Source: an uncultured archaeon
Lineage (GTDB): Archaea; Iainarchaeota; Iainarchaeia; Iainarchaeales; 0-14-0-20-30-16
Length of the DNA stretch: 12,453 nt
Direction: 5' to 3'
Assembly: GCA_964480435.1 (NCBI GenBank)
Contig: CAYZSS010000025.1
Span: 1-12,453, forward strand
Shown: in pieces, positions 1-12,453 of the stretch
Position numbering within the stretch: position 1 is the first letter of the stretch
Layout: every line of letters starts with the position of its first letter
Notes under the pieces: generated by a model
Told to the model about the DNA's origin: nothing
Seen by the model: only the letters and a program-made list of their open reading frames with translations
Database searches by the model: none
Position numbers and translations under genes: made by a program

Positions 1-1037
1 TCATCAAATTCAATTAAAGGATTTGATATCCCTTCCATGCTTGTTTTCTTCAATTCTTTTATTACATCTTCATGACTTAAGGAATTCGCATTTTCCATTG
101 CAGATAATAAGACTTTTGCAGCATCATAACCAAAAGGAGCAGCTACATTTACTAAAAAATCATTGCCTTTTTGAGCCATAATTTTTGTTTTAAAATCATT
201 AGGCAAATTAAACTTTGGAGAAGTAAACATCACACCTTCCCCCAATCCACTTTTTAATGAATCTTCAGAAAGAGTTGCATCCCCACCAACAATTGGAACG
301 TTTAAATTTATTTCTTCTTTTGTTTTCAAAATAGAAAGCAAGTTCTTTGGGTACACAGGCAAATAAAGTAATTCTGGGTTAGTATTTTTTACTTTAATCA
401 ATAAATCTTTAACATCCAATTGGTCTTGTAGTACAGAATCTTTTGATTCAATTACACCCCCAAGTTTTGTGTACTCCGCAGAAAATTTATTTGTAATTTC
501 TTGACCCCAGTTATTATTAACGTAAATTATTGATACTTTTTTCTTGCCTAATTTATTGTAAATATAATCCGCAGCATAAACTCCTTGAAAAGCATCAGAA
601 GGATAAACTCTGAAAATATTATTTCCTAATGCTGTTAATCCTGGACTAGACGCCGTAGCAATAACATTTGGAATATTTTGTGTAACACCCATTGGCAACC
701 CAGATCCAGCCTCAGCAGAACAAACTGGCCCCAACATCCCAACCAAATCATAATTATTTAATAGAGCATTATACGCTTTTGCCCCACCTTCCGAAGTGCA
801 CAGCCCATCTTCAACAATAAGTTCTATTTTTTTCCCATTTATTCCACCTTTTGCATTAAATTCATCTATAGCAAGTTGCACACCCGCAACTGTGTTATAG
901 CCCCAGGTAGCAGTATCTCCACTCAAAGGAGCAACTAAGCCAATCTTCAGAGCACCATTAGCCCCATTAATAGAAAATACAATTATTATTGCCAAAACAA
1001 TCACAGCAAGTATTCCAAAAAACAAATAAGATTTCAT
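1..1037 (-). CDS. ABC transporter substrate-binding protein, Leu/Ile/Val-binding (LivJ/LivK-like, type 1 periplasmic-binding fold); the 3' end runs off the window
   Basis: The reverse frame is open from the ATG at 1037-1035 to the window edge. It is absent from the ORF track because it has no in-window stop. GGAGG (complement of 1045-1049) lies 7 nt upstream of the ATG. My own translation begins MKSYLFFGILAVIVLAIIIVFSINGANGALKIGLVAPLSGDTATWGYNTVAGVQLAIDEFNAKGGINGKKIELIVEDG. That is a hydrophobic anchor followed by the KIG..PLSG..G and INGKKIEL..ED pattern typical of branched-chain amino acid binding proteins. Confidence 0.8.
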   Translation of the reverse strand, partial: MKSYLFFGILAVIVLAIIIVFSINGANGALKIGLVAPLSGDTATWGYNTVAGVQLAIDEFNAKGGINGKKIELIVEDGLCTSEGGAKAYNALLNNYDLVGMLGPVCSAEAGSGLPMGVTQNIPNVIATASSPGLTALGNNIFRVYPSDAFQGVYAADYIYNKLGKKKVSIIYVNNNWGQEITNKFSAEYTKLGGVIESKDSVLQDQLDVKDLLIKVKNTNPELLYLPVYPKNLLSILKTKEEINLNVPIVGGDATLSEDSLKSGLGEGVMFTSPKFNLPNDFKTKIMAQKGNDFLVNVAAPFGYDAAKVLLSAMENANSLSHEDVIKELKKTSMEGISNPLIEFD

Positions 1038-1060
1038 TTTATTTCCTCCAGCAAGATCTT

Positions 1061-1072
1061 TTGTATATACAA
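1061..1072. promoter_or_regulatory. Perfect 12-bp palindrome TTGTATATACAA in the divergent SBP/Lrp intergenic region; candidate operator and/or TATA element
   Basis: TTGTATATACAA is its own reverse complement. The half-sites recur as TTGTAT at 1104-1109 and ATACAA at 1152-1157, bracketing the TATA box at 1131-1140. Confidence 0.35.
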
Positions 1073-1130
1073 CCTTGGTTTTTATGAGAATATATTATGT
1101 TTTTTGTATTCTTGGAATAAAACAGAAATA

Positions 1131-1140
1131 TTTAAATATA
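1131..1140 (+). promoter_or_regulatory. Archaeal TATA box (TTTAAATATA) for the Lrp/AsnC gene
   Basis: It matches the TTTAWATA consensus and is centred about 27 nt upstream of the ATG at 1162. This spacing suggests a leaderless or near-leaderless mRNA. Confidence 0.5.
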
Positions 1141-1161
1141 TTTTCAGTATTATACAAATAT

Positions 1162-2124
1162 ATGCTTAATTTAGACAAATTTGACAAAAAACTTCTATAT
1201 GAATTAGATTTAAATGCCCGCCAGACCAATAAACAGTTAGCCAGAAAAGTAAAGTTGTCTGAGCAGGCCATCGCATACAGGATTGAAAAATTACAAAAAA
1301 ATGGAGTCATAGAAGAATTCGTTTTAATGGTTAACCCTGGAAAACTTGGATACACCCATTACAAAATATACCTTAGATTACAAAACATTCCAACAGAAGA
1401 AGAAAAACTATTTCTTGATTTCTTAAAAAAAGAAGATGGGGTTTTTTGGGTTGTATCCGCACGCGGAAACTATGACTACATCATCTCTTTTTCTTCCAAA
1501 ACATTAAATGATTACAAAATATTTTATTATAACTTAAAAAATAAATTTGGGCAATATATTTATTCAGAAGATTTAGTTTTGCCTATAAAAGCACCATTAT
1601 TTAATCGATCTTATTTTGTAGAAAATTCCAAAAAATTAGAAGTAATATACGGGGGAAAACAAGTTATTGAAGAAATAGATAACAAAGACAAAAAGATTAT
1701 TAGTGCTTTAGCACACAACGCAAGACTAAGCTATTTAGAAGTAGGCAAAAAGACAAAAATAAAACCAGACACAGTAAGAAATCACTACAAAAAATTAGTT
1801 GCAAATGGAGTAATAATAGGGACACGATTAAAACTGAATGTAAAAAAAATTGATAGAAATTATAACATTATTTTTTTTACACTACAAAACTTTAATGAAA
1901 AAAATCTAAGAGATATGGAAGTTTTCGCACAAGGTCACGCACCAATAATTTACTATATTAATTGTATTGGAAGCCACAACGTAGAACTTGAGATTGAAAC
2001 TATAAATGATGACGAAACAGATTTTATAATAAAAAGTTTTAGAGATTATTTTTTTAAATATATCAAAAATTATTCTGTTCTTACAGTAAAGGAAGAAATA
2101 AAGCTAAAAATCGTGCCGTTCTAG
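1162..2124 (+). CDS. Lrp/AsnC-family transcriptional regulator with two tandem HTH plus ligand-domain modules in one chain
   Basis: The track ORF 1075..2124 starts at TTG and adds a hydrophobic, junk-like 29 aa. The ATG at 1162 follows the TATA box. The N-module is LDKFDKKLLYELDLNARQTNKQLARKVKLSEQAIAYRIEKLQKNGVIEEF. The second module starts near 1675 and reads IDNKDKKIISALAHNARLSYLEVGKKTKIKPDTVRNHYKKLVANGVIIG. Both fit the HTH_AsnC pattern and each is followed by a beta-rich segment. Confidence 0.8.
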   Translation: MLNLDKFDKKLLYELDLNARQTNKQLARKVKLSEQAIAYRIEKLQKNGVIEEFVLMVNPGKLGYTHYKIYLRLQNIPTEEEKLFLDFLKKEDGVFWVVSARGNYDYIISFSSKTLNDYKIFYYNLKNKFGQYIYSEDLVLPIKAPLFNRSYFVENSKKLEVIYGGKQVIEEIDNKDKKIISALAHNARLSYLEVGKKTKIKPDTVRNHYKKLVANGVIIGTRLKLNVKKIDRNYNIIFFTLQNFNEKNLRDMEVFAQGHAPIIYYINCIGSHNVELEIETINDDETDFIIKSFRDYFFKYIKNYSVLTVKEEIKLKIVPF

Positions 2125-2142
2125 AAAAAGAGCTAACTAAAT

Positions 2143-2829
2143 TCAAGTTGTAGGCACATATTCTCTAATTACTACGTGCTTCTCATCAAGCCCCAAAGAC
2201 TGTGCAAAATCAAAATATTTTTCTTTTTCCAAGGTACTTACTTTTGATGAATTAAATCCAGTTACAAAGCTCACATAAGTATCTATTTTTTGTTCCTTAC
2301 ATTCTTTAATAAATAAAATCAAATTATTAAAAGCAGACTTATATTTTGGCCTGCACAAAGTAGTGTAATCTTTTTCAGAAATAGCATTTAGTGAGATACG
2401 TATTTCATCCAGCCCAGAAGCTTTCAATAGTTTTGCTGCATTTTTTTTCTTACATCTTACTAGGCCATTGGTATCTATTCTCACTTTTATTTTATATGTT
2501 TTCTTTATTTCTTTTATTACTTTAATAATTTTGTCAAAATATATTAACGGCTCTCCTAACCCTATGAAAGCAATTTCTTCATCATCTTTTCGTAAATTTT
2601 TTTCAATTTCTGAAATTATCTTTTTTTCTGCAGGAGATTTACTTAAATAAAGAGACTTTTGTGCTTTTTTTTCATAAATATTTTCCTTGCCAAAATCGCT
2701 TTTTAATCTGGGCCTACTACAAAAAGCACAATCATTTACACAAGCATAATTACTTATCACATTCACATACAAAATATTTCCTGAATACACAGGAGTTGTA
2801 AATCTGTAAGTAATATTTTCTTGCTTCAT
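2143..2829 (-). CDS. Small radical SAM protein, possibly of the archaeal TatD-associated radical SAM type
   Basis: It has the CxxxCxxC motif CVNDCAFC, plus FIGLGEPLIYFD and RIDTNGL motifs typical of the radical SAM core. The track start at 2841 is GTG. The ATG at 2829 is preceded by AAGGTG about 9 nt upstream (Shine-Dalgarno-like), so I prefer 2829. The subfamily assignment is from memory of motif style only. Confidence 0.8.
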   Translation of the reverse strand: MKQENITYRFTTPVYSGNILYVNVISNYACVNDCAFCSRPRLKSDFGKENIYEKKAQKSLYLSKSPAEKKIISEIEKNLRKDDEEIAFIGLGEPLIYFDKIIKVIKEIKKTYKIKVRIDTNGLVRCKKKNAAKLLKASGLDEIRISLNAISEKDYTTLCRPKYKSAFNNLILFIKECKEQKIDTYVSFVTGFNSSKVSTLEKEKYFDFAQSLGLDEKHVVIREYVPTT

Positions 2830-2842
2830 ATATATCAGCACC

Positions 2843-3007
2843 TTAAATTAACAAAACATGCAGAATTGTAAATATCAAAGCAAATAATGCAAACACTTTG
2901 TGATATATTGGTTTTATTTTAAGTCTTATTCCAAATACACCTACAAATACAGTTGCAATTAAAAACAAAAGCCCAAGTATTCCAAAAATATTAGTTAATA
3001 AACTCAT
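2843..3007 (-). CDS. Unannotated 54-aa two-transmembrane micropeptide (below the ORF-track length cutoff)
   Basis: Hand translation gives MSLLTNIFGILGLLFLIATVFVGVFGIRLKIKPIYHKVFALFALIFTILHVLLI*. The ATG (3007-3005) overlaps the TGA stop (3006-3004) of the upstream SdpI-like gene as ATGA. GAGGGAT lies about 9 nt upstream. The ORF stops at 2845-2843, just before the radical SAM start. A 54-codon open frame is uncommon in sequence this AT-rich. Confidence 0.5.
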   Translation of the reverse strand: MSLLTNIFGILGLLFLIATVFVGVFGIRLKIKPIYHKVFALFALIFTILHVLLI

Positions 3008-3645
3008 TTTTTTATCCCTCTATAAAGTAAATAAGAATATACAAATAAAATTATTACTACTAATAAAATACCAACCAAAAAAACATAAAATACATATTTA
3101 TCATAAAAGAAACCAAGCAAAGTTATTAGTCCTAAAACATAAAACAAAATTGCAGCCAGTTTATGTGTCTTATTCCAAACCTCGTCATTAGCCAAAGTCC
3201 AGGGCGTCCTTATACCTACAAAATAATTTCTTTTTGCTTTTCTCAAAAGGGGAGCAATAATAATAAATAGCATTCCAATTGCAGGAACTATAGCTTTACT
3301 CATGTTAAAAACAGACCCAAGGTTCCAAAAAATTGTTAATAAATAAATGTAAAACAAAAATAACATTATTCCAAAAATAAAATAGTCGAATTCTTTTTGA
3401 AATTTTTCATAATTTTGTTTTAAGGGGTCCAATTTAGGTAAAAAATAAAGTAATAACACCATTACTAACCCCACCACAGGCATTAAAAATAAACCCCACG
3501 CTTTTGACATAAAACCATTAACCTGTCCTGCCGCATCCCAGTGTGATGCCACCTTATCAGGAAAATGAGCATATAACCCAATAGCAAGCACAAAAGAAGC
3601 AATAACTAAGAATATTGTAAGAATATTAATTAGTTTCAGTTTCAT
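3004..3645 (-). CDS. SdpI/DUF1648-family integral membrane protein
   Basis: The N-terminus is a TM helix followed by HFPDKVASHWDAAGQVNGFMSK, the DUF1648 signature style. Several further TM helices follow, plus a RNYFVGIRTPWTL motif typical of SdpI-like proteins. The ATG is at 3645. Confidence 0.75.
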   Translation of the reverse strand: MKLKLINILTIFLVIASFVLAIGLYAHFPDKVASHWDAAGQVNGFMSKAWGLFLMPVVGLVMVLLLYFLPKLDPLKQNYEKFQKEFDYFIFGIMLFLFYIYLLTIFWNLGSVFNMSKAIVPAIGMLFIIIAPLLRKAKRNYFVGIRTPWTLANDEVWNKTHKLAAILFYVLGLITLLGFFYDKYVFYVFLVGILLVVIILFVYSYLLYRGIKK

Positions 3646-3666
3646 GATAAATATAAGTTAAATAAC

Positions 3667-3674
3667 TTTAAATA
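3667..3674. promoter_or_regulatory. TATA element (TTTAAATA, palindromic TTTAAA core) placed to serve both the tRNA (+) and the SdpI-like operon (-)
   Basis: It is centred about 28 nt upstream of the tRNA 5' end (3699) and about 25 nt upstream of the minus-strand ATG at 3645. Confidence 0.45.
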
Positions 3675-3698
3675 AGTATATACACCCTATTTTATCAA

Positions 3699-3855
3699 GC
3701 AGTAGTAGTCTAGCGGTTAGGATTGGGGCTTCCCATGGGCCTTTTTGTAAAAAACCCCCGGGAAAAAACGCTTCGCGTAATTTCTTAGGGAATATAACAG
3801 ATAAAGTTATGCCCGGAAAGAGCCTCTGACCCGGGTTCAAGTCCCGGCTACTGCA
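3699..3855 (+). tRNA. tRNA-Gly (anticodon CCC) interrupted by an 85-nt intron at the canonical 37/38 position
   Basis: This was folded by hand. The acceptor stem is GCAGTAG/CTACTGC. The D arm is GTCT-AGCGGTTA-GGAT. The anticodon stem is GGGGC/GCCTC, with loop TTCCCA|..|A and anticodon CCC at 3732-3734. The variable region is TGAC. The T arm is CCGGG-TTCAAGT-CCCGG and the discriminator is A3855. No CCA is encoded. Exons are 3699-3735 and 3821-3855, giving a 72-nt mature tRNA. Confidence 0.9.
3736..3820 (+). other. tRNA intron with a canonical hBHBh' splicing motif
   Basis: The central 4-bp helix pairs TTCC (3730-3733) with GGAA (3815-3818). The 3-nt bulges are CA|T (3734-3736) and AG|A (3819-3821), with cleavage after the second bulge nucleotide in each. 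The outer helix pairs GGGC (3737-3740) with GCCC (3811-3814). Internal hairpins include ACGC-ttc-GCGT and ATAAC-agataaa-GTTAT (3794-3810). Confidence 0.85.
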
Positions 3856-3887
3856 TCAGAGAGTATATTCCCTCTAATGTGGTTTAT

Positions 3888-4478
3888 ATGTATTCATATT
3901 TATGGGCTTATCTAAAACACCAGAAAGAACTTTTAGTAGGACATTTAAAAAGTCTATATCTACAAATAGTTTATCCACAAACTTATGAGCAGATGAAAAA
4001 AATAAGAGGCAATTATAAAAAACTTCTAAAAGAAATTAAACAACTATTAAAATCAAACGATTTAGCTTGCGATTATATTTCCAGAGTAAAAACAATCTAT
4101 TCAATTAACCGAAAATATACTTATTGCCAAATAAAAAAAAGAAATTTTAACACTGCGATAACAGATTTCATAGGGGCAAAAATTCTCCCAAAAACTTATA
4201 AAGATTGTCATAAAGCTGCTGAAATTATACTTGCAAATTACAAATTACAAATAGTTGAGGGCATGAAAAACCCAGAAAATTTCTTTGGTCCTCCACAAAA
4301 AATGAGAGATACCGACAGTCAAATAAAAAACCAAATATATATTAAAATATTATATGAAAACTCCCCTGCCCACATTATGATACAACCACAATCAGAGATA
4401 AGTTCTATTTCAAAAGATAGGGCAAAATACATACAATGCATCAATAAAGCCTTAAAAGAATACAAAAGAAAAAATTAA
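3888..4478 (+). CDS. Hypothetical protein with a weak, degenerate RelA/SpoT-like (nucleotidyltransferase-fold) motif pattern
   Basis: This is a long open frame in AT-rich DNA. The track start at 3879 is GTG and the first ATG is 3888. The motif order SRVKTIYSINRKY ... ITDFIGAKIL ... AHIMIQPQ resembles RxKxxxSxxxK ... DxxGxR ... EIQIRT of RSH synthetase domains, but key residues are substituted. The functional call has low confidence. Confidence 0.55.
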   Translation: MYSYLWAYLKHQKELLVGHLKSLYLQIVYPQTYEQMKKIRGNYKKLLKEIKQLLKSNDLACDYISRVKTIYSINRKYTYCQIKKRNFNTAITDFIGAKILPKTYKDCHKAAEIILANYKLQIVEGMKNPENFFGPPQKMRDTDSQIKNQIYIKILYENSPAHIMIQPQSEISSISKDRAKYIQCINKALKEYKRKN

Positions 4479-4484
4479 CTCTTA

Positions 4485-4489
4485 TTTTT
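4485..4489 (+). terminator. Oligo-T tract, a possible archaeal terminator after the 3888..4478 ORF
   Basis: A T5 run lies 7 nt after the stop codon. Archaeal termination commonly uses oligo-T. The evidence is weak in a genome this AT-rich. Confidence 0.25.
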
Positions 4490-4531
4490 CTGATTTAGAT
4501 GTTTTTAAAAATTAATAAAAAAGAGTATACA

Positions 4532-4539
4532 TATTTAAA
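4532..4539 (+). promoter_or_regulatory. TATA box (TATTTAAA) for the lipoprotein gene
   Basis: It is centred about 25 nt upstream of the ATG at 4561. Confidence 0.4.
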
Positions 4540-4560
4540 GTTATATTTAATATTTCTATA

Positions 4561-5712
4561 ATGAATAAAATATTTATCTCTTTGATTCTCTTTTTTGTTG
4601 TATCAGCTATATTTTTATCTGGTTGTGTTTCAACAACAGACGACGACAACAACTTAGGCACCACACAATCAGAGTTAAATAGTGATGGAACAGCAAATAG
4701 CCCAAATAACGGAGGGCCAAGTGAAGTTGATAACGTAATATATATCCCGGGAAATAATAATCCTGCTGAACCAGATCCTAAACCAAAGGACGAAGTAGAT
4801 CCTGCTGATGATAACCCTAGTACTACTCCTCAAATTCTTTTAAATGCCTTGGGTTTAGCACAATTATTAGGTTTGCCAACTGATGATATTGATGCAGCTA
4901 CAAAAGCAAAAATCAAACAATATATTGAACAAATAATAGCTGACCCGAATTCAACAAATGCCATGCTAGTAAATGCTTTAGAGTTAGCACAGGCTTTAGG
5001 TTTAGACTCGGAAGGTATGTTTGCAAAAGAGATTTGGGACAAAATAAAAAGCCGAATTGAAGCCGAATTAAATGACCCATATACTTGTAAAAATAGATTA
5101 AAAGAAATAGCTGAATTACTTTCTCAATTAGGTTGGGATGACTTAGCTGATAAAGCAATGCAAAAAGCAGAAAGTGCTACAGAACTTTGTAGTAGAATTA
5201 AATATGAATATTTATCTGAAGCAAAAGACACTTATTATTTTACAAAAATAGATATTGTTGGTGGCGCATTAAAAAGATATAGTGTTTTAGGCCAAACTTT
5301 AGGTACTAGAAACTATTATTTTGAAGATGGCAAATTTATTTGGTCTTATAAAGTAGTTGTAGACAATGGTTGTGTTATTATAACCAAAGAAGGCAATGGA
5401 ACAGCCACTATGGACTCAGAAAACCACAGTTTATTTGGCTTTGAAGATGCTGAGCAGTATGGCGGATCAGCATTTTTTTCCGTAGAGCTAAATGTAGATA
5501 AAACCCCATCACCTACAAGAAATGAATATTGTGATGAAAACCCTGATCAACAATTAGGAAAAAGTAAAGAATATGAAAATTTACAAGTTCATATTGGTGG
5601 CAATGCTAAAGGACATAGAGCAGTTGGCCAGAAAAACCAAGTTTGGAGCCCGCCACAAGATCAAGAATCTGGTTATGAATATACATATTGGGATTTGAGT
5701 TTTGGAGAATAG
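4561..5712 (+). CDS. Secreted lipoprotein of unknown function, with an N-terminal lipobox, an acidic/Pro/Asn-rich linker, three helical repeats and a beta-rich C-terminal domain
   Basis: The signal peptide MNKIFISLILFFVVSAIFLSGC ends in the lipobox L-S-G-C. A low-complexity DDDNN...PAEPDPKPKDEVDPADDNPSTTP linker follows, then repeats of NAL(G/E)LAQ(L/A)LGL. Confidence 0.8.
   Translation: MNKIFISLILFFVVSAIFLSGCVSTTDDDNNLGTTQSELNSDGTANSPNNGGPSEVDNVIYIPGNNNPAEPDPKPKDEVDPADDNPSTTPQILLNALGLAQLLGLPTDDIDAATKAKIKQYIEQIIADPNSTNAMLVNALELAQALGLDSEGMFAKEIWDKIKSRIEAELNDPYTCKNRLKEIAELLSQLGWDDLADKAMQKAESATELCSRIKYEYLSEAKDTYYFTKIDIVGGALKRYSVLGQTLGTRNYYFEDGKFIWSYKVVVDNGCVIITKEGNGTATMDSENHSLFGFEDAEQYGGSAFFSVELNVDKTPSPTRNEYCDENPDQQLGKSKEYENLQVHIGGNAKGHRAVGQKNQVWSPPQDQESGYEYTYWDLSFGE
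4843..5229 (+). repeat. Three in-frame tandem repeats of 129 nt (43 aa) inside the lipoprotein gene
   Basis: Units start at 4843, 4972 and 5101, an exact 129-nt period. They begin aatgccttgggtttagcacaattattaggtttg, aatgctttagagttagcacaggctttaggttta and aaagaaatagctgaattactttctcaattaggttgg. The third unit is degenerate. Confidence 0.6.
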
Positions 5713-5745
5713 AAAACATAATAAAAATATCACAAAACAATAAGC

Positions 5746-5753
5746 TTTATAAT
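5746..5753 (+). promoter_or_regulatory. TATA box (TTTATAAT) for the OFOR operon
   Basis: It is centred about 25 nt upstream of the ATG at 5775. Confidence 0.4.
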
Positions 5754-5774
5754 TATCTATTTTTATTATAACAT

Positions 5775-7433
5775 ATGGACAAAAATTTAGATTTTACTAT
5801 TGTTATTGGTGGAAGAGCTGGAGACGGCATAAGACAAACCGGCAATTTAATTGCCAGAACCTTAAACCAGAGGGGGTACCACATCTTTGTTAATGAGGAT
5901 TATCCTTCCCTTATAAGAGGAGGACATAATTTTTCAATAATAAGGTGTAGCACAAACCCGGTCCAAGCTATAAAAGAAAACATAGATATTCTAATAGCAA
6001 TGGATGAAAAAACAATCCAAAAACATAAAAATCTAAATAAAAATTCAGTTATTATTTTTGATTCTTCAGACGAAACAAAGCAAAAAGGAATTGGAATAAA
6101 AATGAAAGAATATGTTTCAGAAAAAAATTACAAACCAATTATGAGAAACACAGTTGCATATGGAACATTATGTAAAATTTTAGGAATAGATTTAAAACTT
6201 GCAAAAAAAATGATTGAAAAAATTATTGGACGTCATGTGAAAGAAAATATTGAACTAGTAGAATACGGTTATAATCAAACAAAAGAAAGTTTTACAAAAT
6301 TAGATATTATAAAAAAAGAAAAAACAGCAATCATAACAGGAAATGAAGCAATAGCATTAGGAGCAGTAAAAGCAGGATTAGAAAATTATTATGCTTACCC
6401 TATGACTCCGGCAACAAGTGTTTTACATTATTTAGCCGAAAACCAAGATAAATTTGGATTAGAAGTTTACCAGCCAGAAAGCGAACTAGCAACAGTAAAT
6501 ATGGCTATCGGAAGTGCATTTGCGGGCAAGAGGTCCATGGTAGGAACTGCAGATGGTGGCTTTGCATTAATGACTGAAGCATTAAGTTTAACAGGCATTT
6601 CAGAAACCCCCTTATTATTTTTTGTATCTCAAAGAGCGGGGCCAGCAACAGGAGTACCAACATATACTTCTCAGGGATCTCTATTGTTTACTGTTTTCGC
6701 AGGTGCAGGAGATTTTCAAAAAATAGTAGTCTGTCCGGGAGATGCAGAAGATTCTTTTGAATATACAGGAAAAGTATTAAATTTGGTTTGGAAATATCAA
6801 ATACCAGGCATTGTTTTAGCAGATAAAGAACTATCTGAAAATACTTACGAATTTAATTTGGAAATTCTAAAAACTGTGAAAAAAGATGAAATAAAATTAA
6901 GCACAGAAAAAAATTATGCACGTTATAAATTCACAGACACAGGTATTTCTCCCTTATTATTCCCTGGGAAAAAAGATGCAGTTGTTAGAGGCACAAGTTA
7001 CGAACATGATGAACATGGAATAACTACAGAAGATTTAAGAATAGTACAAAAAATGCAAGACAAAAGAGCAAAAAAAACAGAGTCATTAATTAATGAATTA
7101 AAGAAAACTAAAACAGCAAACATATTTGGAGATAAAAAATCAAAGACTGCAATAATTTGTTTTGGATCAACAAAAGGAATTTGTAAAGAGGTTGGAGAAA
7201 ACTTAAAACTAAAAGTAATACAACCAATTTTTATAGAACCATTTCCAATTTGGGAAATTGAAAAAGAACTCAAAGGGATTGAAAAAATTATTGTTGTTGA
7301 ATTAAATATGACCGGACAACTAAGCAAAATTCTAACTCAAAATGAAATAAAAATAAACAAGAAAATATTAAAGTATAATTCCAGACCTTTTGTCTATGAA
7401 GAATTACATAAACTTATCAAGGATGTGATATAA
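5775..7433 (+). CDS. 2-oxoacid:ferredoxin oxidoreductase, fused gamma-alpha subunit
   Basis: The N-terminal gamma-type domain reads IVIGGRAGDGIRQTGNLIARTL...YPSLIRGGHN. The alpha domain reads ITGNEAIALGAVKAGLENYYAYPMTPATSV and GGFALMTEALSLTGISETPLLFFVSQRAGPATGVPT. No delta (ferredoxin-like) subunit is present, as in two-subunit Sulfolobus-type OFORs. The 2-oxoacid specificity cannot be read from the sequence. Confidence 0.9.
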   Translation: MDKNLDFTIVIGGRAGDGIRQTGNLIARTLNQRGYHIFVNEDYPSLIRGGHNFSIIRCSTNPVQAIKENIDILIAMDEKTIQKHKNLNKNSVIIFDSSDETKQKGIGIKMKEYVSEKNYKPIMRNTVAYGTLCKILGIDLKLAKKMIEKIIGRHVKENIELVEYGYNQTKESFTKLDIIKKEKTAIITGNEAIALGAVKAGLENYYAYPMTPATSVLHYLAENQDKFGLEVYQPESELATVNMAIGSAFAGKRSMVGTADGGFALMTEALSLTGISETPLLFFVSQRAGPATGVPTYTSQGSLLFTVFAGAGDFQKIVVCPGDAEDSFEYTGKVLNLVWKYQIPGIVLADKELSENTYEFNLEILKTVKKDEIKLSTEKNYARYKFTDTGISPLLFPGKKDAVVRGTSYEHDEHGITTEDLRIVQKMQDKRAKKTESLINELKKTKTANIFGDKKSKTAIICFGSTKGICKEVGENLKLKVIQPIFIEPFPIWEIEKELKGIEKIIVVELNMTGQLSKILTQNEIKINKKILKYNSRPFVYEELHKLIKDVI

Positions 7434-8284
7434 TGAATCCTATAGATTTAAACACATACGCAGAAAATACCTGGTGCCCAGGTTGTGGAAACTTTTCATT
7501 ATTAAATTCTTTTAAGTCCGCAATTTCTGAATTGGTTAATGACAATAAATTAAAAAAAGAAGAAATAGTAATTGTCACAGGAATAGGTTGTCATGGAAAA
7601 ATGTTTGATTACTTAAACCTAAATGGCTTTTACGCCTTACATGGGAGGGCAATCCCCACAGCAGAAGGAATAAAATTAGCAAACAAAAAATTGAATGTAA
7701 TTATTTTTGTTGGTGATGGGGATTGTTATGGAGAAGGAATAGAACACCTAATTTTTGCAGCAAAAAGAAATGCAAATATTACAGTAATTGTCCACAATAA
7801 CCAGAATTATGCCTTAACAACCGGGCAATTTACGCCTACAAGCCCATGGGGTTACAAAGGAAAATCAAAACCACAGGGTATTTTTGAATTACCACTAAAT
7901 CCAATAAAATTAATGCTCTCAAGCAATGCAAGTTTTGTAGCAAGAGGATTCGCAGGAGATATAGATCATTTAAAAAATATTTTCAAAGAGGGAATAACAC
8001 ATAACGGCTTTTCTTTTATAGAAGTTATACAACCAGAAGTTACTTGGTTAGATACTTGGGGATTTTATAGAGCACATACAAAAAAGATTCCAGAAAACCA
8101 CGATTTATCAAATCAGGAACATGCTATGAAGTATGCAAATGAATTTGATTATCTAAATGTAGAGGATACCCAAATGTCGTTAGGCATTTTTTACAAAAAG
8201 TCAAGAAAAGATTTTGAAGACCTAGAAAAGATAAAAGATGAAAAACAAGATATGAAAAAACACCTTCTAAATCGGCATTATTAG
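7433..8284 (+). CDS. 2-oxoacid:ferredoxin oxidoreductase, beta (TPP-binding) subunit
   Basis: Motifs include WCPGCGNF and GIGCHG, plus the TPP motif GDGDCYGEGIEHL...VHNNQNYALTTGQ. The ATG overlaps the upstream TAA as TAATG (7431-7435), preceded by the SD-like AAGGATGTGAT. Confidence 0.9.
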   Translation: MNPIDLNTYAENTWCPGCGNFSLLNSFKSAISELVNDNKLKKEEIVIVTGIGCHGKMFDYLNLNGFYALHGRAIPTAEGIKLANKKLNVIIFVGDGDCYGEGIEHLIFAAKRNANITVIVHNNQNYALTTGQFTPTSPWGYKGKSKPQGIFELPLNPIKLMLSSNASFVARGFAGDIDHLKNIFKEGITHNGFSFIEVIQPEVTWLDTWGFYRAHTKKIPENHDLSNQEHAMKYANEFDYLNVEDTQMSLGIFYKKSRKDFEDLEKIKDEKQDMKKHLLNRHY

Positions 8285-8294
8285 ACAAAAAGAA

Positions 8295-8300
8295 TTTATA
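8295..8300 (+). promoter_or_regulatory. TATA element (TTTATA) for the multi-HTH gene
   Basis: It is centred about 26 nt upstream of the ATG at 8324. Confidence 0.4.
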
Positions 8301-8323
8301 CTTCCTCCCATCTATTTTTTATT

Positions 8324-9298
8324 ATGCCTAGGCCACTTGGAAGAAAAGCAAAAAATTATGGTAAACAAAGAGCTAAACAAATAGCTACATTTAGACTGTA
8401 TCTGGGCCAGGCAAGAGAAATAATCAGGCAAAGAGGATCCATAACAGCTACTTTTTTAACACAAAACGGAATCCCTAGAAATATGGCAGACAGGGTTTTA
8501 ACACACCTTGAACAACAAGGAGAACATATACCCCCTCCAGAAAGAGTACGAGCTCAAGGACAAAGAGCAGTAGAAGCAATAAAAAGAAGAGAAAAATTAA
8601 AAGCCAGTTTAGATTCAGGGGCACAAATATCTGACATATTAACTCTTACTCAATACTCAGGAAAATCCGGAACTGAATTATTAGCTTCTGATCTTAATGC
8701 AATAAGGAAGTATTATGACCCTTCTTTTTCAATAAGAATGGCAATTCCCGCTAATCCAAGAGTAGCAAGAATGATAATGTTAATTAAAGAAAATCCAAAC
8801 ATATCACAAAAAGAACTTGCAAAAAATATAGGAGTAAGCACAAGCACAATAAGAGATCTGCTTACCTTAGTTTCAGACCGGATTAAAAATCTTAGAATTT
8901 TTCCAGGCAGTAGATTTTCGGTAGGTGAACTTAGAAGCCAAAATATCACAATATTAATTGAATATTTAAAAGGAACAAAACTCAAAGACATTGCAGAAAT
9001 GATAAATAAAGAACTTGCAAAAAAAAGAAGCCCACATAGGCTGACAATGACAAATGTAGCTCACCGCTTAAAATACGCCGCAAAACCAGACGAAGACACC
9101 CCCAGAAGAGCTAGCGGACCAACACAATATACTAAGGAACAACTGGCAATACAGAATAAAGAAATAAAAAACCTTGCAAAAACAAATATTGGTCCAGCTG
9201 AAATTGCGAGACTTGTTACAAAAAAAACAGGTATGACAGTAACAGGAGACCAAGTTTATGCCAGACTAGCATGGTGGAAGAAAAGGGGACTTATTTAG
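8324..9298 (+). CDS. Orphan basic protein made of about five consecutive helix-turn-helix modules; family not recognised
   Basis: There are five segments with the pattern helix, G/N turn, helix, turn, recognition helix. Examples are IIRQRGSITATFLTQNGIPRNMADRVLTHLE, LDSGAQISDILTLTQYSGKSGTELLASDLNAIRK, IKENPNISQKELAKNIGVSTSTIRDLLTLV, LKGTKLKDIAEMINKEL...MTNVAHRLKY and AKTNIGPAEIARLVTKKTGMTVTGDQVYARLAWW. No enzymatic motif was seen. Confidence 0.7.
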   Translation: MPRPLGRKAKNYGKQRAKQIATFRLYLGQAREIIRQRGSITATFLTQNGIPRNMADRVLTHLEQQGEHIPPPERVRAQGQRAVEAIKRREKLKASLDSGAQISDILTLTQYSGKSGTELLASDLNAIRKYYDPSFSIRMAIPANPRVARMIMLIKENPNISQKELAKNIGVSTSTIRDLLTLVSDRIKNLRIFPGSRFSVGELRSQNITILIEYLKGTKLKDIAEMINKELAKKRSPHRLTMTNVAHRLKYAAKPDEDTPRRASGPTQYTKEQLAIQNKEIKNLAKTNIGPAEIARLVTKKTGMTVTGDQVYARLAWWKKRGLI

Positions 9299-9305
9299 AA
9301 TACTA

Positions 9306-9310
9306 TTTTT
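9306..9310 (+). terminator. Oligo-T tract after the multi-HTH gene, a possible terminator
   Basis: A T5 run lies 8 nt after the stop. It is followed by a weak hairpin, TTACT-aagt-AGTAA. Confidence is low in AT-rich DNA. Confidence 0.25.
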
Positions 9311-9409
9311 CACACTTACTAAGTAGTAATAACAACAGTTGCTATTTCCCCCAGAAAAAAAATATTGGTTGTTTTCTATTACTATTTAAAAAATACGGAC
9401 AGGTTTATT

Positions 9410-9417
9410 TTTAAATA
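9410..9417 (+). promoter_or_regulatory. TATA box (TTTAAATA) for the methyltransferase gene
   Basis: It is an exact consensus match centred about 25 nt upstream of the ATG at 9438. Confidence 0.45.
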
Positions 9418-9437
9418 ATCCTTTACTATAAGCTAAT

Positions 9438-10370
9438 ATGCAAACCAGAGAGATACCCACAAGTTTTATTGAAAAGATAAAAACAATCCTTCCTGAAGAC
9501 GAGATAGAGGATTTCAAAAAAGCCCTTGTTGAATCTCCATTAAAAGCCTTTAGAATTAATACTTTAAGAGGAAACGCTAAAGAAGTTAAAGAATCCTTTG
9601 CTACAAAAGGGATAGATATTATACCCATGCCATTTTACAAACATGGTTTTTTTGTAAAATCTTTTTCTATATCCCTAGGAAATACTCTTGAGCATTTTTT
9701 AGGAAAGATTTACGTCCAAGACGCAAGTTCTATGCTACCTGTGATTCCACTTGAAGCACAAAAAAATGAATCTATTCTGGATTTAGCCGCTGCCCCTGGG
9801 TCAAAAACAACACAAATTGCAATGAATATGCAAAACGAGGGGTTAATAATTGCAAATGAACCAAATCAAAAAAGAATACAAGCCCTACAAGACAATTTAG
9901 AACGAGCAGGAGTATTAAACACAGTAATAACAAAAAATGATGGCAGATTTTTTAAGAAAATGTCAAATTCTTTTGATAAAATTCTATTAGACGCGCCTTG
10001 CTCACTAGAAGGAACAATGTTTAAAGATGAAAAAGTAAAACATAGGTGGAGCCAACATTTTGTAAATAGCTCTGCAAAATTAGAATATGATTTATTACAA
10101 TCAGCAATTATTTCTGCAAAACCTGGTGCAACAATAATTTATTCCACTTGCACAATATCTCCTGAAGAAAATGAGGCAGTAATTAATAAAGCGATAAACG
10201 AATTTGATATTGAAATAAAAAACGTAGAATTTGATAAATTAAATTGTTCCCAAGGAATAACAAACTATAATAATTTAGAATTTGATAAAAGTGTAAAGAG
10301 GTGTATAAGAATATGGCCGCACAAAGCAAAAATAGGGGCTTTTTTCCTAACAAAAATTCAAAAAAAGTAG
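9438..10370 (+). CDS. NOL1/NOP2/Sun (RsmB/RsmF/Trm4-type) RNA cytosine-C5 methyltransferase, N-terminal and catalytic domains only
   Basis: YVQDASSMLPV and DLAAAPGSKTT form the SAM motif I. The two catalytic Cys motifs are DAPCSLEG and YSTCTISPEENE. The terminal IGAFFLTKIQKK matches the usual end of the catalytic domain. Confidence 0.85.
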   Translation: MQTREIPTSFIEKIKTILPEDEIEDFKKALVESPLKAFRINTLRGNAKEVKESFATKGIDIIPMPFYKHGFFVKSFSISLGNTLEHFLGKIYVQDASSMLPVIPLEAQKNESILDLAAAPGSKTTQIAMNMQNEGLIIANEPNQKRIQALQDNLERAGVLNTVITKNDGRFFKKMSNSFDKILLDAPCSLEGTMFKDEKVKHRWSQHFVNSSAKLEYDLLQSAIISAKPGATIIYSTCTISPEENEAVINKAINEFDIEIKNVEFDKLNCSQGITNYNNLEFDKSVKRCIRIWPHKAKIGAFFLTKIQKK

Positions 10371-10849
10371 AATATAAACTTTTAAGTAGCAAAGAATTAA
10401 TTGTAATTTATAACTATCTTGAGGAACAATTTGGGATCCCGGAAGCAGAATTAAACAAATATGAGTTCATAAAAAGAGGCTTAGATCTTTGGGCATGCAC
10501 AAAAAAATCTTTGCAAGTAATACAATTTGAAGGAATCGGACTTAAATTAAGCACAATTGGATTAAGAGCTATGCGTAACCCTTTTGAAGGTAACAAAAAA
10601 ATAACTACTAATTTCGCACAAGCATTTGGGATGTATGCTACAAAAAACACATATGAATTAAAAGAAGATGAATTGCTCCCTTACCTAAGAGGACAGGACT
10701 TAGAATTAGAGTCAGATATTGGTCGAGGACACAGAATAATAAAATATAACAATAATATTGTGGGCGTTGGTCATGCACAAGAAACAAAAATAATAAACCA
10801 AATACCTAAAAGCAGGTTTATAAAAAATTGGAATATAAAATCAGTCTAG
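10313..10849 (+). CDS. RsmF-type C-terminal (pre-PUA/PUA-like) RNA-binding domain, encoded in the -1 frame relative to the methyltransferase; either a separate overlapping gene or the frameshifted continuation from about 10361
   Basis: GRGHRIIKYNNNIVGVGHAQETKIINQIPKSR resembles the G-x-vlv-y-g-x-LG-x-gk...lKN-x-yPk..R ending of RsmF-like C-terminal domains (recalled from memory). The track start at 10301 is GTG. The ATG at 10313 is preceded by GAGGTG (10298-10303). Residues encoded before about 10361 overlap the conserved end of the upstream gene and look like out-of-frame noise. Confidence 0.65.
   Translation: MAAQSKNRGFFPNKNSKKVEYKLLSSKELIVIYNYLEEQFGIPEAELNKYEFIKRGLDLWACTKKSLQVIQFEGIGLKLSTIGLRAMRNPFEGNKKITTNFAQAFGMYATKNTYELKEDELLPYLRGQDLELESDIGRGHRIIKYNNNIVGVGHAQETKIINQIPKSRFIKNWNIKSV
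10361..10367 (+). other. A_AAA_AAG heptamer in the zero frame of the methyltransferase, immediately followed by TAG; a candidate -1 frameshift site or a homopolymer indel site
   Basis: The zero-frame codons are CAA AAA AAG TAG (10359-10370). The -1 frame reads AAA AAA GTA GAA TAT... = KKVEYKLL, which continues into the 10301..10849 ORF. Confidence 0.4.
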
Positions 10850-11260
10850 AGAATAAATTTCAGAGCCATTTTTTATTTTATTTCTTTTTGCTTTTTTTAT
10901 TAAATAGTGAACTGAACTTTTTGGTAGACCAGTTTTTTTCTCTATTTCCCTATATGAAAATCCAGATTTATAAAGTGCCAGAGCTTTTTTCATTTTTTCA
11001 GGATCTTGTGCTATAGGCCTTCCAGGCAAACGTTCATAAGTAATCTTAACTTTTTTTCTAAACAAATAAGATTTTACTTTTTCCGCAAGCCTTCCAAAAG
11101 TAGATTTAGGCATAAATAATTCTTTTTTTTCTTTAAAATATTTCTCATATTCTTTTGTTTTCACAGGCCTAACTAGATGCACTTTATGTTTTGTTTTTTT
11201 TCCTTTTCTAACAATTTCTTTCATATTATCCCACGTGCACTTCTTACTCTTAAATTTCAT
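10841..11260 (-). CDS. Small, highly basic DNA-binding protein with a C-terminal resolvase/HTH_7-type helix-turn-helix
   Basis: GRPIAQDPEKMKKALALYKSGFSYREIEKKTGLPKSSVHYLIKKAKR fits the resolvase-type HTH pattern. The N-terminal half is Lys-rich. The track start at 11263 is GTG. The ATG at 11260-11258 overlaps the RNase Z TGA stop (11262-11260) as TGATG. Confidence 0.7.
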   Translation of the reverse strand: MKFKSKKCTWDNMKEIVRKGKKTKHKVHLVRPVKTKEYEKYFKEKKELFMPKSTFGRLAEKVKSYLFRKKVKITYERLPGRPIAQDPEKMKKALALYKSGFSYREIEKKTGLPKSSVHYLIKKAKRNKIKNGSEIYSLD

Positions 11261-12171
11261 CACTTTAATTCAAAAGAATTCAGATCAGTTCCAAAAACAA
11301 TTTCTTTTGATTTATATTTCTTTTTTATTTTATCTAAATCTTCCAGATATCTATTACTATAATTAAATAAAATTAATTTTTTTACTTTCGCTTTTTTTGA
11401 TATTTTTATTACATCTTCTAAAATAGAGTGTTTTGTTTCTTTTGCTTGTTTTTTATGTTCATTCAAAAAACAAGATTCGTGGAAAAGCAAATCCGCACCT
11501 TTAATAAAAGATTCATAACCAGTATCATCCAGATCTACAAAATAAGCTAATTTTATTCCTTCTTTATTTTTACTATAATCCATTACCATTTCAGGTTTTA
11601 TTTTTTTTCCATTATAGCTTACTATCTCCCCATCTTGTAATTTTTTATATAATGGGCCAGGTGGTAAAAGTTTTTCTGCTTTTTTTCTATTAAACTCACC
11701 AATTTTATTTTTTTCTTTAATTAAAAATCCAAAATTTAATACTCTATGTTTTACTTTTTTTGCATATACTTCAGTATTATTAAAATCTAAAATTTTCCCC
11801 TCTGATAGTTCTTTACAAATTATTTTGTAAGAAACACCAATATTAAAGGCATTTAACATATCTTCAATTCTTTTTTTTATTCCTTTTGGGCCAAAAATAG
11901 TAAGTGGATTTTTTCTTTCTGACAATTCCATTGTTGCCAATAATCCAGGAAGCCCCAAAAAATGATCTGCATGAAAGTGGCTTATAAAAATATTATTTAT
12001 TTTCATAAAACTTATTCCAGACTGCATAATTCTTATTTGCGCACCTTCACAAGCATCAAACAAAAAAACATCCCCATCATGTTGTACAATTAAAGACGAA
12101 GTGAAATTTTCTTTTGTTGGCTTAGATGATACACTTCCTAATAAAACAGCTTTAAACATAATACCACTCAT
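11260..12171 (-). CDS. rnz: Ribonuclease Z (tRNA 3' endonuclease, metallo-beta-lactamase fold)
   Basis: The HxHxDH motif is in ISHFHADHFLGLPGLL, with FLFDACEGAQ upstream. C-terminal motifs are LFHESCF...AKETKHS and LILFNYSNRY. Candidate starts are 12192, 12171 and 12159. I chose 12171 because TTTTATAT (complement of 12191-12198) is centred about 24 nt upstream. Confidence 0.85.
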   Translation of the reverse strand: MSGIMFKAVLLGSVSSKPTKENFTSSLIVQHDGDVFLFDACEGAQIRIMQSGISFMKINNIFISHFHADHFLGLPGLLATMELSERKNPLTIFGPKGIKKRIEDMLNAFNIGVSYKIICKELSEGKILDFNNTEVYAKKVKHRVLNFGFLIKEKNKIGEFNRKKAEKLLPPGPLYKKLQDGEIVSYNGKKIKPEMVMDYSKNKEGIKLAYFVDLDDTGYESFIKGADLLFHESCFLNEHKKQAKETKHSILEDVIKISKKAKVKKLILFNYSNRYLEDLDKIKKKYKSKEIVFGTDLNSFELK

Positions 12172-12190
12172 ATAATATAAAACACAATAC

Positions 12191-12198
12191 ATATAAAA
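12191..12198 (-). promoter_or_regulatory. TATA element (TTTTATAT on the minus strand) for the RNase Z/HTH operon
   Basis: It is located between the upstream gene's stop (12204-12202) and the RNase Z start candidates. Confidence 0.35.
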
Positions 12199-12201
12199 TA
12201 T

Positions 12202-12453
12202 CTACACATCTTGCCTTTTTAAAAATTCTTTGGTAATCTCTTCTCTCAAAATAGAATCTATTTTTTTAACATCTGGATTACTAAGCGCTCTTGGATACCT
12301 TGGATTTTTTCTATCATTTATCCAAGGATAGTTCCAAAATTCAGTATTTTTTACAAAGTTACGCGCAAACTGTTCTGAATATTCTAAACACCCAGTTAAA
12401 ATTACATCAATATAAGACTGTATTATTGGACTTTCAGAAGATGGTTTTCCCGG
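12202..12453 (-). CDS. C-terminal 83 codons of an unidentified protein; the 5' end lies beyond the window
   Basis: Hand translation of the reverse strand is open from the window edge to the TAG at 12204-12202. It reads PGKPSSESPIIQSYIDVILTGCLEYSEQFARNFVKNTEFWNYPWINDRKNPRYPRALSNPDVKKIDSILREEITKEFLKRQDV*. It is not in the track because no start lies in the window. I do not recognise the family. Confidence 0.55.
   Translation of the reverse strand, partial: PGKPSSESPIIQSYIDVILTGCLEYSEQFARNFVKNTEFWNYPWINDRKNPRYPRALSNPDVKKIDSILREEITKEFLKRQDV

Follow-up and report, generated by a model that had tools for sequence, protein, structure and literature searches.

Separate overlapping genes for an RNA methyltransferase and a PUA protein as the probable reading of a slippery stop site in a DPANN archaeon

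The stretch of DNA analysed here, positions 1 to 12,453 (12,453 nucleotides, nt) of contig CAYZSS010000025.1 and referred to as the window, comes from an uncultured archaeon, and its closest relatives are metagenome-assembled genomes (MAGs) of Candidatus Diapherotrites (DPANN). On the forward strand, to which all coordinates refer unless the minus strand is named, the window carries a gene for a Nop2p/NSUN-type RNA m5C methyltransferase of 310 amino acids (aa) (gene 1; 9438..10370) and, in the -1 frame relative to it, an open reading frame (ORF) for a 178-aa stand-alone pre-PUA + PUA RNA-binding protein (gene 2; 10313..10849). These are very probably separate, overlapping genes that make up a two-gene operon of a Diapherotrites-type archaeon, with gene 2 translated from its own ATG at 10313..10315. 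An earlier note on this DNA had put forward a programmed -1 ribosomal frameshift (PRF) at the A_AAA_AAG heptamer abutting the gene 1 stop codon, and had listed as alternatives a separate overlapping gene from ATG 10313, preceded by a GAGGTG motif, and an error, phase variation or decay in the A run. The features that it described (ORF 9438..10370, heptamer 10361-10367, -1 continuation to 10849, ATG 10313 and GAGGTG 10298-10303) all hold in the sequence, and its domain assignment, frame relation and list of alternatives were correct; the comparative evidence, however, favours the separate overlapping gene over the frameshift.

The junction in related loci

Related loci were collected in two ways: L001-L009 were obtained via exact-protein look-up and come from differing samples and assemblers, and L010-L079 were added by scanning genome and metagenome collections with an alignment of the C-terminal domain (C-domain). 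At each locus both halves were placed by tblastn, and both frames were printed at the junction. The split into a methyltransferase and a PUA gene is seen in about 40 distinct archaeal loci, from Diapherotrites-type DPANN archaea and from Poseidoniales. Each of L001-L009 has a PUA ORF of 178-183 aa in the -1 frame with a 58-nt overlap, and the same downstream ORF is found in the -1 frame in L001-L014 and L037-L049, with the exception of L044, where it is separated and lies in the +1 frame. No fused archaeal orthologue occurs among the top 120 matches of gene 1; fused forms start at 36% identity and below and are bacterial (WOR-3 and others). Comparison of these sequences shows the split to be ancestral and widespread.

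In the window, the 58-nt same-strand overlap (10313..10370) has a -1 frame that is stop-free throughout. The ATG of gene 2 lies within the RIWPH motif of gene 1 and takes its A from the end of an Ile codon (ATA) and its TG from the Trp codon that follows (TGG). In the window's clade there is no ATG, GTG or TTG near the gene 1 stop, and the nearest start upstream is this ATG spanning xTA-TGG. The 16 distinct long-overlap junctions of the window's type were compared with 24 distinct Poseidoniales-type junctions that served as controls. All 16 have xTA-TGG (ATA, GTA or TTA), with A at the third position, whereas the same codon in the controls is ATA in 10, ATC in 8, ATT in 5 and CTT in 1. All 16 long-overlap junctions thus have the ATG, as do 10 of the 24 controls (Fisher p = 1e-4, uncorrected for phylogeny), and ATA makes up 47% of the Ile codons of the window. 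The contrast is stronger still for the reading frame, which is open from the ATG to the gene 1 stop in 16/16 long-overlap junctions and in 0/24 controls (p = 1.6e-11, likewise uncorrected for phylogeny); the homologous stretch contains one to four -1-frame stops in every control. In the rest of gene 1 the -1-frame stop density is 0.08-0.14 per codon, from which the chance of an open run of 18 codons is 0.07-0.24 per lineage. Codon resampling with each gene's own usage returned P = 0.0 for the window and L009, which is uninterpretable, and the stop densities and the comparison of the two classes were used in its place.

How the frame is kept open can be read from the codons, as the overlap avoids those ending in T before codons that begin with AA, AG or GA: CAC AAA is found and not CAT AAA, together with GCA/GCG AAA, ACA AAA, ATC AAG, TGC AAG and CTG AAA. 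In L005 and L008 the last -1-frame stop lies two codons before the ATG, so that the frame is held open from the ATG and no further. The comparison with the controls shows, at the level of sequence, that both the ATG and the open -1 frame of the overlap are selectively maintained in the window's clade. A GTG at 10301 had also been considered as the start of gene 2, and was rejected on account of the -1-frame stop between it and the ATG in L005 and L008.

Upstream of the ATG, at a distance of 9 nt, lies the Shine-Dalgarno (SD)-like motif GAGGTG (10298..10303), built from the gene 1 codons AAG and AGG. Both are minor codons in the window (AAG 44 vs AAA 349; AGG 23 vs AGA 81), and AAG AGG TG is kept in the four closest lineages. 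The radical-SAM ORF, apparently an internal gene of the window, is preceded by AGGTG at the same 9-nt spacing. We infer from these observations that GAGGTG acts as the SD sequence of gene 2.

Other lineages have clear two-gene layouts of other kinds. In 23 distinct junctions of Poseidoniales (marine groups MG-II/III), gene 1 ends in GAA AAA TGT followed by TGA, TAA or TAG, and gene 2 starts at an ATG (GTG in L019 and L059) within a 7-nt overlap, ATGTTGA or ATGTTAA, giving M-L-R-I-L-D...; -1-frame stops occur a few codons upstream of this start. The two genes of L071 share an ATGA overlap. L044, which belongs to the window's broad clade (50%/48% identity), has ATC TGG and no ATG at this position; a spacer of about 137 nt follows, and gene 2, in the +1 frame, has its own ATG (ATG AGA GAA TAT GAA TAT AAA GAG; M-R-E-Y-E-Y-K-E-L-S), so placed that the protein starts at the conserved EYK(E/L)LS motif. 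In L036 (Pacearchaeota), a gene resembling the major facilitator superfamily (MFS) lies between the methyltransferase and PUA genes, and L035 (Methanohalobium) has a non-overlapping pair in which the match to the methyltransferase is broken up over three reading frames.

As a separate observation on L044 (1371-1986), its -1 frame is still stop-free across the final 19 methyltransferase codons despite the lost ATG; this open frame may be the relic of a recently dissolved overlap.

The two gene products

Gene 1 has an RsmF-type N-terminal domain (PF17125 Methyltr_RsmF_N) followed by the RsmB/F catalytic domain (PF01189 Methyltr_RsmB-F, E = 8e-49). It passes the Nop2p model TIGR00446 with 263.9 bits (cutoff 210.45), its residues 39-309 covering positions 2-264 of the 264 in the model, so that the catalytic domain is complete. 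The protein ends in ...GAFFLTKIQKK*, encoded at its close by CAA AAA AAG TAG (10359-10370), just past the conserved GFF.aK..K that marks the end of the catalytic domain, and its alignment with Pyrococcus horikoshii PH1374 (chain residues 39-314 of 315) reaches the end of that protein, as does the alignment with the Nop2 catalytic core. In an AlphaFold2 (AF2) model of both ORFs read as one chain, the methyltransferase part superposes on Nop2 with a root-mean-square deviation (rmsd) of 1.5 Å at 34% identity, and eukaryotic Nop2/NSUN1 is the nearest to the gene 1 protein in both sequence and structure. Its closest homologues are all 299-317 aa in length, at 40-75% identity, and its TAG stop (10368..10370) stands at the position of the inter-domain linker in fused RsmF-type proteins. 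Judged by these alignments, the gene 1 product is complete without the downstream module.

The 178-aa product of gene 2 matches PF13636 Methyltranf_PUA with 32.6 bits (cutoff 27.6) and contains no methyltransferase domain, as expected of the stand-alone form, and gene callers have called the identical product in public assemblies (P0121). At the junction the -1 frame reads GTA GAA TAT AAA, or VEYKLLSSKEL..., and it stays open until the stop at 10847-10849. Residues 1-18 are the tail encoded by the overlap, and the conserved domain begins at about V19-E20-Y21-K22. The AF2 model of this ORF has a mean predicted local distance difference test score (pLDDT) of 67.6; residues 1-18 fall below 50 and are predicted to be disordered, and the remainder is folded into two domains. 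Between relatives, substitutions in the overlap fall at synonymous sites of frame 0 and alter the residues of the -1 frame, and the tail of gene 2 is therefore a passenger of the gene 1 coding sequence. The top Foldseek match of the model is E. coli YebU/RsmF (2frx; 165 aligned columns of 178 aa, E 5e-6, TMq 0.65), with further matches to 3m4x and to Thermus RsmF (3m6w).

With the C-domain alone as query, a word-indexed protein search yielded six matches and was replaced by an exhaustive hidden Markov model (HMM) profile search of 1.84 billion cluster representatives (50% identity clusters), which found 720 homologues of gene 2 at E <= 1e-3. Almost all of the best 150 of these 720 are 130-185 aa long and match from target residues 2-15 and from about query residues 20-35; only three among these 150 are fused proteins (473-500 aa). 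The 18 overlap-encoded residues are matched in this search in the four or five closest relatives only. Stand-alone PF13636 architecture is also found in P0127-P0141 and in the L016 product. The C-domain is, on the evidence of these matches, an autonomous protein family of archaea and bacteria, often adjoining a Nop2-like methyltransferase.

In addition, several other arrangements of this family were noted. In WOR-3/Hydrothermota the PUA gene occurs without an adjoining methyltransferase, none being found within 2.5 kb in the WOR-3 loci, and in several WOR-3 loci it follows the GTPase gene der, with a 4-nt overlap in most. These observations draw on the proteins P0127-P0275 and on the loci L015, L018, L020, L022, L024-L026, L028, L031, L033 and L034, and in P0138 (371 aa) the PUA module is fused to a HAD hydrolase.

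Alternative readings of the junction

The heptamer that gave rise to the proposal of a frameshift, A_AAA_AAG, lies in the zero frame at 10361..10367 within a run of seven A (10360-10366) and directly abuts the TAG. The window has a G+C content of 30.6%, and such sequences are abundant in it, so that chance can account for the one at the gene 1 stop: AAAAAAG occurs 27 times (19.2 +/- 3.9 in dinucleotide shuffles), in-frame heptamers of the form X_XXY_YYZ number 88 per 3448 codons, and two unrelated genes have an A-rich heptamer right before the stop, namely AAAAAAA-TGA (heptamer start 3013; 3004-3022, minus strand) and AAAAAAT-TAA (heptamer start 4469; 4469-4478). These two other gene ends show that base composition is what places a slippery sequence before a stop codon in this genome. 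Among the 16 distinct long-overlap junctions, the window alone has the heptamer directly at the stop, and L042 has it one codon upstream. The other gene 1 ends include ATG AAA AAA TAG, GTG AAA GAG TAG, TCC AAA GAA TAG, ATC AAG AAA TAA, AGA AAG ATA TAG, ACA AAA CTT TAG, AAG AAA GAG TAA, AAA GAA GAG TAG and AAA AAA CTA TAG, and several of these junctions lack any slippery sequence while the gene layout is identical. The heptamer is most likely an incidental, lineage-specific product of an AT-rich, Lys-rich C-terminus.

A programmed -1 frameshift at this heptamer, aided by the TAG and yielding a 310-aa short form together with a 470-aa RsmF-like fusion, has real features to point to. The heptamer, the stop and the -1 continuation all exist, and the one cellular -1 PRF that experiments have established in archaea, that of Sulfolobus solfataricus fucA1, uses A-AAA-AAT (PMC8211752, PMC1616953). 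The virtual fusion, predicted by the earlier note at about 470 aa with the domain order of RsmF, is indeed 470 aa long, has the Pfam order Methyltr_RsmF_N + Methyltr_RsmB-F + Methyltranf_PUA, and is colinear in one stretch with the NCBIfam RsmF model (residues 3-459 vs positions 5-468 of 480). The fusion scores far below the cutoff of the RsmF equivalog NF008898 (290.3 bits vs 588), besides not being a single chain; its alignment with fused homologues leaves a 16-column gap exactly at the junction, and it would miss the 10-19-residue linker common to all of them. The AF2 model of the fusion shows the methyltransferase plus the C-terminal module and is confident for each domain (pLDDT 82), but it superposes on RsmF crystal structures domain by domain only (overall rmsd about 19-20 Å), and is thus uninformative for or against a covalent fusion. 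Stimulatory elements are lacking as well: no downstream structure is predicted, in agreement with the earlier note, which had seen no convincing hairpin (10368-10450 folds at -8.6 kcal/mol vs a shuffle mean of -10.15; z = 0.56, 134/200 shuffles being at least as stable), and there is no SD-like stimulator about 10 nt upstream of the heptamer, where the sequence at 10-14 nt is TTCCTAACAAAAATTC. Furthermore, a slip at the stop needs neither the ATG nor the 18 open -1 codons before it, and yet both are maintained. Most orthologues keep the identical split without the heptamer, and related lineages have independent starts or separated genes (Poseidoniales, L071, L044, L036 and L035). The orthologue alignment, a check that the note itself had named, gave a conserved split without a conserved heptamer and, in several orthologues, two genes with plainly independent starts, an outcome that speaks against the frameshift on the note's own terms. 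PRF is therefore very unlikely here. There is a similarly slim chance that ribosomes slip at A_AAA_AAG while ATG 10313 also initiates, giving three products, namely free methyltransferase, free PUA protein and a little linker-less RsmF-like fusion; such a case might represent a lineage-specific, newly arising recoding site on top of an ancient gene split.

Slippage elsewhere in the overlap, whether a -1 frameshift or transcriptional, would have the merit of accounting for the open -1 frame upstream of the stop. The candidate is T_TTT_TTC (10340..10346), a second formally slippery heptamer within GCT TTT TTC (A-F-F of the conserved GFF motif), which is invariant in the close clade and across which the -1 frame is open. 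However, the conserved G-(A/G)-F-F residues dictate its presence, and it is degraded in deeper relatives of the same layout, which have GGG TTT TTC, GGT TTT TAC, GGT TTC TTC or GCA TTT TTC. Runs of T5-T6 are also short for transcriptional slippage, and this explanation leaves unaccounted for the nine open codons between the ATG and the site, as well as the ATG in 16/16 junctions, so that we regard it as even less probable than PRF. The possibility that the frame break reflects an assembly error of one nucleotide, a phase-variable A7 run or the recent pseudogenisation of a fused gene, which the earlier note had raised, can be set aside almost with certainty. Homopolymers are error-prone and A8 in place of A7 would fuse the frames, but many assemblies and samples, independent of one another and at 38-75% protein identity, show the same break, among them relatives without an A run; the A7 is identical in L080 (Logan SRR8437217), which was assembled independently from the same organism; neither ORF is disrupted, and each is conserved at the protein level; and the fused forms are the distant bacterial ones described above. 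A last alternative is a variant of the favoured explanation and concerns the transcript rather than the start codon. The apparent first genes of the window have no SD motif, and an AT-rich stretch resembling a TATA box precedes their ATG by about 25-30 nt (4531-4560, 5745-5774, 8294-8323 and 9408-9437), and genes that seem to be internal carry GGTG/GTGAT-type motifs at a distance of 3-9 nt (2830-2849, minus strand; 7418-7432); first genes thus look leaderless and distal genes SD-led, a familiar archaeal division. A similar AT-rich element, TTTGATAAAA (about 10281-10290), lies 23-32 nt upstream of ATG 10313, and if it served as an internal archaeal promoter, the mRNA would begin near that ATG and have a short leader or none. 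This stretch, however, encodes conserved residues in a genome of low G+C, for which reason its AT-richness is uninformative, and a GAGGTG made of minor codons favours SD-led initiation; the variant is accordingly improbable, about as much so as PRF.

Separate genes, with gene 2 starting at ATG 10313, remain by far the best explanation, and several points weigh against it. The SD-like motif is strong in the closest relatives only, and since deeper members have GTGA-type remnants, its role as an SD is a matter of inference. The ATG and part of the motif fall in codons constrained by the gene 1 protein, so that part of their conservation comes free. The lineages compared are related, which overstates the p-values, and initiation at ATG 10313 is a prediction from conservation. 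An overlap of 58 nt is unusually long for prokaryotic gene pairs. Finally, A_AAA_AAG is intrinsically shift-prone in E. coli, and low-level, unprogrammed slippage might thus still take place.

Genomic setting and known systems

The window looks archaeal; besides the pair, it contains genes for a tandem Lrp/AsnC-type regulator, a radical SAM protein, 2-oxoacid:ferredoxin oxidoreductase subunits and tRNase Z. The regulator ORF (1075-2124) has two winged-helix matches of the HTH_24/AsnC type (helix-turn-helix, HTH); the TTG listed as its start (1075) probably lies too far upstream, and an ATG at about 1162 suits the start of the domain. An ORF of 196 aa (3888-4478) matches the RelA/SpoT nucleotidyltransferase region weakly, below threshold (E 9e-5; 23 bits vs a cutoff of 27), and might encode a small DPANN protein akin to alarmone synthetases. 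Scans of the window for tRNAs and against Rfam found no tRNA and no Rfam match.

The closest relatives share a conserved gene order, in which a convergent gene for a small HTH protein and then tRNase Z come after the methyltransferase and PUA genes (window 10841-12192, minus strand; L001 4441-5729; L005 4749-6123). The convergent HTH ORF of the window (10841-11263) has weak matches to HTH_SB and sigma-70 region 4 and, on the opposite strand, shares 9 nt with the 3' end of the PUA gene. A tRNase Z gene in the neighbourhood hints at a tRNA-related role.

As regards function, gene 1 and gene 2 are probably co-transcribed, and ribosomes would initiate gene 2 at ATG 10313, led by the SD sequence or, with lower probability, on a leaderless transcript from an internal promoter. 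The free PUA protein might then bring the RNA substrate in trans to the Nop2p-type methyltransferase, and the pair working in trans would reconstitute an RsmF-like enzyme, in parallel to Nop2-Nip7.

This locus also carries a caution, in that a slippery heptamer at a stop together with a homologous domain in the -1 frame can mimic recoding in AT-rich, lysine-rich genomes. The comparative loci very probably settle the question of recoding here without experiments, and the case becomes that of an ordinary, anciently split gene pair, whose 58-nt same-strand overlap is kept by visible selection on synonymous codons and whose second start codon falls within the catalytic RIWPH motif of gene 1. The large family of free-standing RsmF C-terminal modules may be of use in working out how enzymes of the RsmF and Nop2 types bring in their RNA substrates.

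Among known systems, the frameshift in E. coli dnaX occurs at A_AAA_AAG with an SD stimulator and a hairpin. The window resembles dnaX and fucA1 in having 0 and -1 ORFs that overlap by tens of nucleotides and an A-rich heptamer; it differs from them in that its ORFs are not fragments, stimulators are lacking, the heptamer is unconserved and the downstream ORF has its own conserved start. In fucA1 the heptamer is flanked by rare codons and accompanied by a putative stem-loop, and the N-terminal ORF is a non-functional fragment of 81 aa (PMC8211752), whereas both ORFs of the window are complete units with free-standing homologues and are in this respect unlike a fucA1-type split. The pair also resembles translationally coupled operon pairs of the ATGA/TAATG type, which likewise lie on the same strand with the downstream gene in -1 phase, and relatives of the window do use ATGTTGA/ATGTTAA and ATGA junctions; in the window's clade, however, the start lies 55 nt further upstream, inside the coding sequence of the catalytic domain, which gives the 58-nt overlap.

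With regard to the proteins, the two ORFs read together share their domain content and order with bacterial RsmF/YebU, the 16S rRNA m5C1407 methyltransferase (PDB 2frx, 3m6u-x and 3m4x), but here the C-terminal module is a separate polypeptide with its own gene, the inter-domain linker is missing and the host is an archaeon. Gene 1 matches archaeal PH1374 (PDB 1ixk) in length and end point; for that enzyme and Methanocaldococcus (M.) jannaschii aTrm4 (3a4t) no adjacent RsmF-type PUA gene has been described, in contrast to the window. Eukaryotic Nop2/NSUN1 differs in its long extra extensions. In eukaryotes, the PUA protein Nip7 sits on Nop2 in the pre-60S particle, and the combination of a Nop2-like methyltransferase with a separate pre-PUA + PUA protein of about 160-180 aa appears common to both systems. 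The PUA domain of gene 2 is of the RsmF type (PF13636), the Nip7 families gave no match at E <= 1 for the gene 2 protein of the window, and the gene 2 profile found nothing meaningful among PDB sequences; the relative P0127 has a sub-threshold match to pre-PUA_NIP7 (PF17833, E 0.017). The possible link to Nip7 is therefore one of fold only: the gene 2 model, of moderate confidence (pLDDT 67.6), matches human NIP7 (1t5y, 1sqw) over its full length (160-176 columns) with E of about 2e-3 and a template-modelling (TM) score of 0.47-0.50. As modelled, the gene pair may resemble the Nop2-Nip7 heterodimer.

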